A DNA stretch of 29,020 bases from a virus (lineage: Duplodnaviria; Caudoviricetes): the IMG/VR virus record IMGVR_UViG_3300028569_000128, positions 1 through 29,020 of that record, one strand, 5' to 3'. Positions 1 to 7,180 of this stretch are shown piece after piece. Every line of letters begins with the position of its first letter. The first letter of the stretch is position 1. The notes beneath the pieces are model-generated. The model saw only the letters and a program-made list of their open reading frames with translations, did not search any database and was not told where the DNA came from. The position numbers were made by a program, and so were the translations under genes.

Positions 1-105
1 TTCACGCCTGACAACACCAGCTTCAACAGCATCAGTGGGTGGGTTGTAGCGGTAGCTGACTACCCCGTTGCGGTCAACGATGGTCATGTAACGTGCTAGG
101 TTCAT
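1..105 (-). CDS. 5' part of a gene running off the window; probable tyrosine recombinase/integrase N-terminus
   Basis: ATG at 105 overlaps the stop of the upstream gene. Translation MNLARYMTIVDRNGVVSYRYNPPTDAVEAGVVRRE resembles N-termini I recall for podophage integrases (RY..YR.NPP..V..GVV.R). The catalytic domain is not in the window. Confidence 0.5.
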   Translation of the reverse strand, partial: MNLARYMTIVDRNGVVSYRYNPPTDAVEAGVVRRE

Positions 106-4656: not shown

Positions 4657-4686
4657 ATTATTTGATCAATGAACAAATAAAGTCAA
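4657..4686 (-). promoter_or_regulatory. sigma70-like early promoter upstream of the boxA leader
   Basis: Minus strand TTGACT-18 bp-AATAAT; the -10 is imperfect. Confidence 0.45.
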
Positions 4687-4847: not shown

Positions 4848-5033
4848 TCAATCCTTCAATGTGCGCCGTTCGCTATAGAACACCCGTCCCTTGTACATAA
4901 TAGCGTGATCATAACATGCAAGCCATTCTAGCGCATCTGCCCTTGTCAGGCTGTAGTGTTTCTTTTTGAAACCTATGCCGTGCACTGTATAGCCAATGTA
5001 GGGGGCCAATGTTTTGATGATGAATTTTTTCAT
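4848..5033 (-). CDS. hypothetical protein (61 aa)
   Basis: GAGG RBS before ATG 5033 (MKKFIIK...). Confidence 0.65.
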   Translation of the reverse strand: MKKFIIKTLAPYIGYTVHGIGFKKKHYSLTRADALEWLACYDHAIMYKGRVFYSERRTLKD

Positions 5034-5044
5034 GCTGTTTTGCC

Positions 5045-5227
5045 TCAAAAGGGTTTGACGTGATCTTGAAAAACCCGGCGGTTTCGCCCTTGATATTCGG
5101 GAATGTACACTGCAGGGTTGACTAACAAAGCCTTGATTGTGTCAATGCTCATGCCTGTTTTCTCTGCTATTTTTTCAATGCTCATATTGCATTCAAGGAA
5201 ATAATATCTCACATTTTTTTGTGTCAT
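5045..5227 (-). CDS. small HTH-like protein
   Basis: MSIEKIAEKTGMSIDTIKALL has an HTH pattern; AAGG RBS. Confidence 0.6.
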   Translation of the reverse strand: MTQKNVRYYFLECNMSIEKIAEKTGMSIDTIKALLVNPAVYIPEYQGRNRRVFQDHVKPF

Positions 5228-5250: not shown

Positions 5251-5301
5251 AAAAACACAGGCCATAAAGGGCTATGTAAGCCCTTTACAGTCTATGTTTT
5301 C
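5251..5301 (-). promoter_or_regulatory. about 22-bp hairpin after the GP88-like gene (RNase III site or terminator)
   Basis: Minus strand AAAACATAGACTGTAAAGGGCT-tacat-AGCCCTTTATGGCCTGTGTTTT; one mismatch, several G-U pairs. Confidence 0.65.
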
Positions 5302-6174
5302 TTAATGCATAGCTATGATAATTGGCACACCTTTAAGCGCTTGCATGCCGCATGCGTGCCCCTTACCTGTACATGTTCCACATGTACCGGGACAAGGAAA
5401 AGCTTTGATTTTGAAAGCTTCACGTAAAGCCTTGTTTATTGCAGGTGTGCCGTGTTCGTGCCCTTTAACCTTTTTACCAATTGATACTGCTATAAATTCA
5501 CCCCTTGTTATTGGCAAGGCTTTAACCTTTTCGATGGTGTCAAAGCTTGCATTGTGACCCCCTGATATGTTAAGCATGTAATTAACGGGATAGCTTGCAC
5601 CATATGCAAGGATAGCTTCAAAGCTTTTTGAATACCCGTAAACCTTAGCTAACGGGAAATCCTTGATTGTGCCAAACCAAAAGGTGACATCATCATTATT
5701 TGCAAAATCACCATCAACGTATAAGCGCACATCATAAGCTTCACCCTTGAATGTATCGTTTACCGCTTGCAAAGCTTGCACAATGGCGGGTTGATTGTGG
5801 CGTAGCAAGAATGCATTCTGGCATTGGCGCGTGAATGCTGCAGGGTAGCGCCATGCACGAAACGAATAACAAAAATCAAGGCAAGCACCTGCACCGGGAC
5901 ATGTAACACCGGGAAGGCTTGAAAAGGATACAAAGGGGAGCTTGGAATTGCCATTTAAGGCAAATACGCTATACAAGGGCTTGCCTGTAGTGATAATCGT
6001 TTCAAGCTTTGCAAAGTTAGCTTGCCAGCCCTTTTTACCTGTGAACAATGGTGAAGCTTTAAGGGCTTGCAAGGCTTGAAGGGTTTCGTTAACTGTTCCT
6101 TTTTGAACAACAATGGCGAAGGCTTGAAGGGCTTTAAATGTATGAGCGCTAGAGGAAAAGGTTTTGATTTTCAT
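5302..6174 (-). CDS. GP88-like (gene product 88) Cys-rich, radical-SAM-like protein; first early gene
   Basis: GNSKL...TCPGAGACLDFCY, VRLYVDGDF, YGYSKS, CPGTCGTC...C; AAGGA RBS before ATG 6174. Confidence 0.8.
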   Translation of the reverse strand: MKIKTFSSSAHTFKALQAFAIVVQKGTVNETLQALQALKASPLFTGKKGWQANFAKLETIITTGKPLYSVFALNGNSKLPFVSFSSLPGVTCPGAGACLDFCYSFRAWRYPAAFTRQCQNAFLLRHNQPAIVQALQAVNDTFKGEAYDVRLYVDGDFANNDDVTFWFGTIKDFPLAKVYGYSKSFEAILAYGASYPVNYMLNISGGHNASFDTIEKVKALPITRGEFIAVSIGKKVKGHEHGTPAINKALREAFKIKAFPCPGTCGTCTGKGHACGMQALKGVPIIIAMH

Positions 6175-6229
6175 GACGTTGTTTCCTTTGAGGAAGTGAC
6201 ACCAACAATATCGTCGGCATAAAACTACA

Positions 6230-6246
6230 TGCAAACACTGTGCCAA
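6230..6246 (-). promoter_or_regulatory. sigma54 (RpoN) -24/-12 promoter
   Basis: Minus strand TTGGCACAGTGTTTGCA is TGGCAC-N5-TTGCA with exact GG-N10-GC spacing, about 55 bp upstream of ATG 6174. Confidence 0.75.
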
Positions 6247-6262
6247 CTATAGGTTTTGATGG

Positions 6263-6417
6263 TTATATACATGTTATCAACAATGCTTTTCATTCTAGAC
6301 AATGTAAGTTATGCACAGGCAAAACAGAAAAGGGCTAGTTGTTCAAGTTATGCACAAGATGCACTATTATGGTGATTTTGTGCGCTATTTTGGTGCTATG
6401 AAACACCATTATGCACT
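6263..6417 (+). promoter_or_regulatory. cluster of DnaA-box-like 9-mers
   Basis: TTATGCACA at 6309 and 6348 match TTWTNCACA; one-mismatch copies TTATATACA 6263, TTATCAACA 6274, TTATGCACT 6409. Confidence 0.55.
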
Positions 6418-6428
6418 GTTTTGGTGAT
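6360..6428. promoter_or_regulatory. three NtrC-like enhancer boxes
   Basis: TGCACTATTATGGTGAT 6360, TGCGCTATTTTGGTGCT 6381, TGCACTGTTTTGGTGAT 6412 versus consensus TGCACCA-N3-TGGTGCA. Confidence 0.65.
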
Positions 6429-6439
6429 TTTGACTTTGT

Positions 6440-6514
6440 AGGCTTTACCTTGTACCCGTTATAGGTCTATATAACTAAAACTAATATACAGGCTTTGTCT
6501 TATACCCGTTCTAG
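6440..6514 (+). repeat. 25-bp imperfect direct repeat, 50-bp period
   Basis: AGGCTTTACCTTGTACCCGTTATAG (6440) / AGGCTTTGTCTTATACCCGTTCTAG (6490). Confidence 0.8.
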
Positions 6515-6515
6515 T

Positions 6516-6530
6516 TGAGAATCATTCTCA
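6516..6530. promoter_or_regulatory. Fur-box-like 7-1-7 palindrome
   Basis: TGAGAAT-C-ATTCTCA versus TGATAATNATTATCA. Confidence 0.6.
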
Positions 6531-6585
6531 TTTGGAGACATTTCAACAATAAATCACCGATATACAATCAGTATTTTAAACATTG

Positions 6586-6598
6586 TAACCCATTGATT
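6586..6598 (-). promoter_or_regulatory. IHF consensus site
   Basis: Minus strand AATCAATGGGTTA matches WATCAANNNNTTR, in an AT-rich context. Confidence 0.5.
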
Positions 6599-6950
6599 TC
6601 ATTGAATATTTTTATCATTGGGTCAAATATCAAAGCCTTGATTGTCTCACTTATTCTAGCAGTGTAGTCATTTTGTTTTCTAGTCACTTCGCTGTACTTA
6701 GATGGGGCAGGTGTGGGCCAGCGGGGGGTGTAGCGTTATATGTATACAGCATAGCCCACAGAACAGCTATTTCAACCTGTTAACCACAACACCATTTGCA
6801 CCACTTCATAGCTACAATACAGCCCACACACAGGCTACACAGCCTCTACAATGCGTTACCATCGGCAACCAAGGGCTACATAGCTCTACCACTCCACCAC
6901 CCCCTACAGGACCATTAAAGCCTTTGCCAATAACACAGCCTACCCCGCTA

Positions 6951-7180
6951 CAAAATCGACCATGAAAACACTGCCCTGTGTTGTTCCTACACCACACAAT
7001 GAAATATATCGCTTGACAAGATTTTCAGGATTGGTATAACATAGGGGTGATGGGGTGATGAGGCTACTATATAGTCCTATGTTGAAACAATTTAGAACCC
7101 ACATAGTAGATAACAACATACTCCTATATAGGTATATAGCTCTATAGGGCTATATAGCAAAATCGACCATGAAGACACTG
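6951..7180 (+). repeat. 23-bp direct repeat flanking the rightward promoter
   Basis: CAAAATCGACCATGAAAACACTG (6951) / CAAAATCGACCATGAAGACACTG (7158). Confidence 0.9.
7013..7040 (+). promoter_or_regulatory. rightward sigma70-like promoter
   Basis: TTGACA-16 bp-TATAAC with TG extension. Confidence 0.7.

Follow-up and report, generated by a model that had tools for sequence, protein, structure and literature searches.

A predicted NtrC-type sigma54 promoter in an exchangeable slot ahead of the first early gene of an HMO-2011-type phage

The phage contig analysed here in its entirety (29,020 nt, hereafter the window) carries upstream of its first gene a cassette which, judged by sequence comparison, is real, conserved and of the host nitrogen-control promoter type, and which likely works as a promoter. 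It occupies a swappable first-promoter slot and appears to be a variant of the known co-option of host regulators by phages. In the reading that we prefer, with a probability of roughly 0.6, host NtrC~P and sigma54 would act on this promoter to drive a short first transcription unit, consisting of gp88 and two small genes, as a booster. If the cassette is active, the start of infection would be tied to nitrogen status in aquatic bacteria.

The contig is organized in two arms: small genes are read leftward from 6174, and the genes for packaging, head, tail and lysis are read rightward from 7305. Two lake-water DNA runs contain the region, and one of them may be its origin. TerL is 63-79% identical to its top matches (HMO-2011, Roseobacter CRP phages and a spring isolate), with 68.8% for HMO-2011 itself, and on this relatedness the phage is classed as HMO-2011-type, with portal and capsid assigned by family only. 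Divergent arms, an integrase ahead of the replication genes and the lack of an RNA polymerase match are common to the window and to phages of this type, as far as the accessible part of their description goes (PMC9038755). In contrast, the scanned end regions of HMO-2011, CRP-1, HTVC103P and MW202701 contain neither a box pair nor an early-strand sigma54 site, and comparison of the cassette DNA with cultured phages gave no real match (a single 25-nt hit, E 0.6). Toward the late arm, the intergenic region contains two direct copies (96%) of a 23-nt repeat, at 6951-6973 and 7158-7180; near them lies a 10/12 sigma70-like site (7013-7042) which is also present in G001, a complete related genome.

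The promoter cassette and its bacterial counterparts

The cassette comprises the following elements.

6230..6246, minus strand: sigma54 (-24/-12) element, TTGGCACAGTGTTTGCA; predicted start near 6219, from the -12 convention
6360..6376, no strand: NtrC-type box, proximal; 12/14 consensus; centre about -149; host PWM 11.0 bits, rank 4
6381..6397, no strand: NtrC-type box, middle; 13/14 consensus; centre about -170; host PWM 16.6 bits, rank 1
6412..6428, no strand: NtrC-type box, distal; 11/14 consensus; centre about -201; host PWM 11.0 bits, rank 5
6348..6356, plus strand: DnaA-type box TTATGCACA, adjoining the proximal NtrC box; consensus per bioRxiv 866236
6309..6317, plus strand: DnaA-type box TTATGCACA; consensus per bioRxiv 866236
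6274..6282, plus strand: relaxed DnaA-type box TTATCAACA, 37 nt ahead of the sigma54 site

The original prediction placed a sigma54 site with GG-N10-GC spacing at 6246-6230 on the minus strand, about 55 bp before the first gene, and every coordinate is correct. Within TTGGCACAGTGTTTGCA, GG occupies 6244-6243 and GC, after N10, 6232-6231; the end of the site is 55 nt from the gp88 ATG (6174). The pattern has a single match in the window at zero mismatches, and with one mismatch allowed it is not enriched (7 matches vs 3.55 expected; 9 of 100 shuffles reach 7). The three boxes named in the same prediction, at 6360, 6381 and 6412, were likewise recovered (3 vs 0.49 expected; 0 of 100 shuffles), with a pattern that was shaped after the boxes were seen. 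They are spaced 21 and 31 nt apart, and the combination of a box pair with a sigma54 site occurred in none of 2000 shuffles of the intergenic region. A chance origin was considered and discarded in view of box enrichment, locus counts, orientation bias and element conservation. The labels sigma54, NtrC, IHF, Fur and OmpR-like follow the consensus sequences that we take to be those of the respective proteins, and the first two were afterwards checked against real promoters.

The sigma54 holoenzyme requires an activator bound 80-150 bp upstream, according to the portion of PMC3844500 available. The window contains three boxes of the TGCACCA-N3-TGGTGCA type on one helix face, the nearest (about -149) standing at the far edge of that distance range and the others (-170 and -201) beyond it. 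The outer half-sites depart from the consensus in a conserved manner (ATCACC).

A bacterial control was drawn from 69 P-II loci in genomes from the order of G005, a bin described below. A box with a sigma54 site is found in 26 of 34 amtB-linked P-II loci vs 2 of 35 others, and host matrices were built from 22 such amtB-linked promoters. On both strands of the 29-kb window, the host-derived PWM ranks the sigma54 site first (18.0 bits; runner-up 13.6), the boxes take ranks 1, 4 and 5, and the correlation between the box matrices of hosts and phages is 0.91; the ranks and the correlation are partly circular, since one consensus picked both site sets. The window boxes score 11-16.6 bits, under the host median of 19.2 bits. 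E. coli glnA was positive in the same scanner, with distances of 90 and 122. Box-promoter distances in the hosts are in helical phase (mean 5.9 mod 10.5), and the window's enhancer distance of 131 nt is in phase with them. Phage layouts A and B (defined below) together give a phase of 5.3 (p ~0.003), a figure obtained once 4 layout-C loci were removed; for all 15 loci the phase is not significant (p ~0.24).

By these comparisons, the cassette matches Burkholderiales glnK-amtB promoters in motif. With these promoters and E. coli glnAp2 it shares the -24/-12 element, the box consensus, box pairs at 31-32 nt and, for the window and for layouts A and B, the helical phase. It differs from them in being phage-borne and in having three boxes at 21 and 31 nt, the nearest of which is farther from the promoter (131 nt vs 78-125 in most hosts). 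Another difference lies in the loop, which carries DnaA-type boxes in place of IHF. A CCCTTTT bend motif like that of glnAp2 occurs at about -112 in the window; it was dropped as a candidate element, not being retained in relatives.

All three DnaA-type boxes of the window, which the original prediction did not mention, are in register and sit between the NtrC boxes and the promoter. The one at 6348-6356 is in register across 16 aligned cassettes, and the position of the relaxed TTATCAACA box holds the full consensus in most relatives. In the accessible part of bioRxiv 866236, TTATCAACA is itself given as a variant DnaA box. Upstream of gp88, at least two DnaA boxes are found in 13 of 15 cassette loci and 9 of 100 others, against 3 of 115 loci downstream. 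The injection-stop region of phage T5, as covered by the same part of that source, also has ordered DnaA boxes near the genome end, the same two variants among them (bioRxiv 866236). The phage cassettes are unlike it in that 3-4 DnaA boxes of the same orientation lie between enhancer and promoter, outside the repeat. DnaA boxes within a sigma54 loop would, if they function so, make an unusual two-input promoter.

Conservation and exchange of the promoter slot

Relatives of gp88 were taken from the best 80 of 332 viral and the best 80 of 488 metagenome matches, giving 200 loci, 159 with at least 700 nt upstream and, after collapsing, 115 with the window's contig included. The original prediction had named conservation upstream of gp88 as one of its checks, and such conservation was found. 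A box pair is present there in 17 of the 115 loci and, in 15 including the window, it is followed 40-200 nt below by a same-strand sigma54 site; the scan thresholds were chosen after the loci were inspected, and the 15 positive loci share kinship. The combination occurs on the opposite strand in 0 of 115 loci, downstream of gp88 in none and in none of 30 shuffle rounds. Sigma54 sites accompany 15 of 17 box pairs vs 22 of the 98 other loci, and at 9/12 or better they arise in about 22 of 115 shuffled regions. Throughout the 15 cassette loci GG, GC and the flanks of the sigma54 site are invariant while its spacer varies. The cassette stands 54-80 nt before the first ATG in loci where an ATG was called; automatic first-ORF calls cover 43 of 115 loci, with the window absent and L036 wrongly called.

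Three layouts can be distinguished. Layout A (7 loci, including the window) has DnaA boxes in the loop and a distance of 120-141 nt; layout B (4 loci) has them upstream and a distance of 80-81 nt; layout C (4 loci) contains two sigma54 sites, with an IHF-like site between them in at least one case. A pattern scan of the viral collection returned 32 correctly oriented stretches vs 4 with the promoter reversed. Clustering of the 32 together with 3 more gave 27 groups, and in 14 of these, with 19 loci, layout A is matched to the base. These 14 precede differing first genes, with gp88 at most 2 kb away in only 2. Over the cassette the window is 58-66% identical to these relatives, and it carries the letter most common among them at 70 of 79 positions within elements vs 55 of 120 positions between elements. 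Motif, orientation and spacing are thereby kept in relatives, a comparison which speaks for the sigma54 promoter with NtrC-type enhancers that had been proposed.

Individual loci vary. L033, the closest relative, no longer has the distal box in register (score -38.8), and a 10/12 sigma70-like match lies 35 nt above its sigma54 site. The three boxes of L043 are separated by 47 and 43 nt, and its sigma54 site is on the opposite strand. Before the first gene of L043, L154 and L026 stands TGGCACGATTC, followed by a non-canonical -12 with no correctly spaced GC and preceded in two cases by an IHF-like site. In L056, L059, L135 and L145, a pair of sigma54 sites is separated by 101-102 nt, and just 7 nt lie between the first of the pair and the last NtrC-type box. 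In the viral contigs L290, L295 and L315, 4-5 NtrC-type boxes precede a sigma54 site; no match to the window proteins tested was found in them.

Comparison of these loci indicates that the slot is swappable, with relatives bearing a sigma70-like promoter, an OmpR-like arrangement or another enhancer type in the same place. On a gp88 tree of 66 rows (at least 55.5% identity), cassette distribution needs 10 changes, 8 of them forced by well-supported branches; some rows scored as cassette-free may be incomplete. For instance, L033 and L044 have a common first gene, yet the slot of L044 holds a sigma70-like promoter. L036 and L037 also have a common first gene, yet in L037 a triple palindrome of another type precedes the sigma54 site. 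This second enhancer type consists of CGGCAA-W3-TTGCCG palindromes before a sigma54 site, often three at 20-22 nt spacing; it is found in L037, about 480-370 nt before gp88, and in L331-L347, and a scan for it gave 18 stretches vs 4 reversed. TGTAAG repeats with an 11-nt period form a further arrangement, upstream in 14 of 115 loci, 13 of them without the cassette (examples of the arrangement are L010, L034, L035, L038, L045, L047, L077, L111, L120 and L141). Where placed, these repeats lie 67-83 nt before the first gene and about 10 nt above a -10-like hexamer, a geometry we take to be that of OmpR/PhoB-family activators. Layouts A and B also occur in a second phage lineage (G002, 40 kb), whose TerL has no match to the window TerL and whose portal is about 22% identical. 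Natural matched pairs, in which the same first gene or a near-identical gp88 follows different cassettes, are ready test material, and the cassette, at about 250 nt, can be assayed in E. coli without knowledge of the host.

The first transcription unit, the genome end and the host

Downstream of the promoter, the early arm opens with the following features.

6184..6188, minus strand: AAGGA, Shine-Dalgarno-like by sequence, before gp88
5302..6174, minus strand: gp88 (PF17338), 290 aa, the first gene; radical-SAM-like fold predicted
5252..5300, minus strand: long hairpin following gp88, its U tail weak; presumably a processing site or leaky terminator
5045..5227, minus strand: small HTH-like ORF, likely in the first unit; below Pfam cut-offs
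4848..5048, minus strand: small ORF, likely the last of the first unit
4657..4686, minus strand: sigma70-like promoter (10/12) ahead of the remaining early arm; same motif in L033, L096 and L044

Structure prediction suggests, with modest support, that gp88 is likely a radical-SAM-fold protein. Radical SAM enzymes fill the top five rows of a fold comparison (Z up to 8.5, with rmsd 4.7 and 198 aligned for that row), this best Z only modestly exceeding unrelated rows, and two cysteine clusters are invariant (C91/C97/C101 and C260/C264/C267). A Foldseek search returned no result at E<=0.001, and the Atlas entry gave nothing further than GP88. The HTH-like ORF has homologs in 7 of 115 loci and 2 of 15 cassette loci. 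The hairpin after gp88 has in relatives stems that changed yet remain paired, U tails that are mostly weak and a likeness to RNase III sites; 16 of 20 loci reach -20 kcal/mol or lower, a count made without shuffle control.

The original prediction put the whole early operon under sigma54. Comparison supports the sigma54 promoter itself and does not support control of the whole operon, given a conserved sigma70-like promoter 600-875 nt past gp88, found in 4 of 20 loci inspected (the window and three others of its subgroup). Since the remainder of the arm has a sigma70-like promoter of its own, the first unit is likely short.

On the other side of the cassette lies the probable genome end, and at the far edge of the contig an incomplete gene.

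6487..6719, no strand: likely terminal direct repeat, ends approximate, by homology to the G001 repeat
6516..6532, minus strand: Fur-like palindrome within the likely repeat
6586..6598, minus strand: IHF consensus match within the likely repeat; a second at 6628-6643
1..105, minus strand: tyrosine integrase N-terminus, ended by the contig edge; 56% identity over 34 aa to an annotated integrase

G001 is the complete genome to which L033 belongs, and its gp88 is 88% identical. It carries an exact terminal repeat of 233 nt that contains Fur-like and IHF-like sites. Its NtrC boxes and promoter are single-copy, outside the repeat, and point inward to the ribosome-binding site. By homology, the cassette of the window likely lies just inside a terminal repeat, near the probable genome end, with the sigma54 site about 470 nt from that end and the first conserved sigma70-like site about 2 kb from it. 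Three 9/12 sigma70-like matches within the likely repeat are at chance level and, by eye, absent from L033. The early strand of G001 has one sigma54 site at 10/12 or better and five sigma70-like sites. The palindrome at 6516-6532, which presumably merits the name Fur, recurs upstream of gp88 in 25 of 115 loci and downstream in 1 of 115. At the likely repeat boundary a C-run is followed by a GGC motif (window 6715-6729; also L218, L219 and L032). This boundary mark is common to the window, G001 and cultured HMO-2011-type phages and is possibly a terminase cut signal.

The integrase anticipated by the original prediction is present as the N-terminus at the contig edge, and G001 carries the complete gene. 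Searches for TerL or integrase relatives or a prophage found none in 396 and 401 genomes (with 5 genomes unscored in the first search; no positive control), and no att-like tRNA piece was seen after the G001 integrase, again in a search without positive control. None of 4 phage records, of which 2 are complete, has a match to PF00158, the sigma54 activator family. Likewise, 40 G001 proteins encoded beyond the structural first 20 kb include no match to an RNA polymerase, sigma factor or activator. A phage-encoded binder of the boxes was rejected on the lack of a PF00158 match and of any link between the HTH ORF and the cassette. Evidence on the host comes from one distant gp88 contig, itself without the cassette, which was binned with Polynucleobacter (bin G005); gp88 matches among genome contigs are bin contigs. 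The bin encodes ntrBC and rpoN, and rpoN is found in 16 of 41 genomes of its genus (Polynucleobacter per the L191 record), many of which are incomplete.

Mechanism, alternatives and known parallels

As no phage activator was detected, a host activator would have to serve, for which the boxes suggest NtrC. Once the phage DNA is inside, host sigma54 holoenzyme would form a closed complex on 6246-6230. Under nitrogen limitation NtrC~P would bind the three boxes, which are spaced by 2 and 3 helical turns, and loop to the promoter, with opening near 6219. Host DnaA on the three loop boxes may tune the promoter by bending or blocking, in either direction. The transcript would contain gp88 and, probably, both small ORFs; the remainder of the arm would then be fed by the sigma70-like promoter at 4686. 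In hosts poor in nitrogen, the phage would probably gain a strong start. Lake hosts are frequently nitrogen-limited, and nutrient-poor lake water may keep the promoter mostly on, in which case it would act as a booster and not as an either-or switch.

The cassette might instead act as a hard gate, the sole promoter in the first 2 kb entering, so that infection stalls until the host is nitrogen-limited. Host polymerase would here pull the genome in, as it does in T7. The distances of about 470 nt and 2 kb given above, the chance level of the sigma70-like matches in the likely repeat and their absence from L033, and the lack of a phage polymerase, sigma factor or activator in the G001 set would all suit such a gate. 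However, the gp88 tree implies at least 8-10 exchanges of the slot, a turnover that hints at dependence being less than strict, and sigma70-like promoters are present downstream; we regard the gate as unlikely. Also unlikely is a broader reading in which the first-entering end is a plug-in sensor slot where NtrC, DnaA and sigma54 would delay entry and infection until the host runs short of nitrogen and its replication state is right, the swapped plug-ins of sister phages partitioning hosts by physiological state. The signal may also be something other than nitrogen, if another enhancer-binding protein with a similar site, such as an NtrC paralog, is the activator. The ATCACC half-sites fit this view, as do the phages that pair at least one further enhancer type with sigma54, yet the phage box consensus is near-identical to that of host glnK-amtB, and a phage HTH ORF accompanies only 2 of 15 cassettes, leaving this improbable.

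That the sites sequester NtrC, sigma54 and DnaA without being a promoter is likewise an improbable account. The region does gather DnaA-, Fur- and IHF-like sites for several host proteins, 9 of 100 loci that lack the cassette also have DnaA box arrays, and the orientation in L043 is odd. Against a decoy, orientation is otherwise strict (15 vs 0; 32 vs 4), the position before the first ATG is fixed at 54-80 nt, the spacing resembles that of real promoters and three boxes are few for a sink. Titration of NtrC or RpoN alone, raised in the original prediction, also sits poorly with G001, where the sites are single-copy outside the 233-nt repeat, and so not doubled, and face the ribosome-binding site. 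The same prediction suggested that, with the integrase, the cassette could feed a lysis or dormancy decision. The integrase is indeed in the same arm, the first unit includes an HTH ORF, and integration is known for one phage of the group, CRP-3, according to the accessible part of PMC9038755. This switch is highly improbable and unsupported, since cassette and integrase occur separately: the complete genome G002 has the cassette without a PF00589 or PF00239 match, hence no integrase or resolvase hit, and G004 the integrase without the cassette, a co-occurrence judged on few complete records. In addition, the integrase lies about 6 kb off, behind two sigma70-like promoters, and the genome searches above, run without positive control, found no related prophage. 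A host-activated booster of the first unit remains the reading that we prefer.

No NtrC-driven phage promoter was found in the open-licence literature searched. The Pseudomonas phage YuA has a sigma54-like promoter, P015, which shares with the cassette that host sigma54 would read a phage promoter, and differs in that the accessible part of its description has no NtrC boxes or nitrogen link (bioRxiv 2023.10.13.562163). Phages also co-opt host regulators, for instance CtrA in 'lytic deferment', LexA, and Spo0A in phi29, as set out in the accessible part of PMC9437464. Common to these cases and to the cassette is that sites for a host regulator in an intergenic phage promoter region would sense the state of the host. 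The cassette described here differs from them in its regulator and sigma class, in its predicted ATP-driven enhancer and in the swapping of the regulator among close relatives within one slot.
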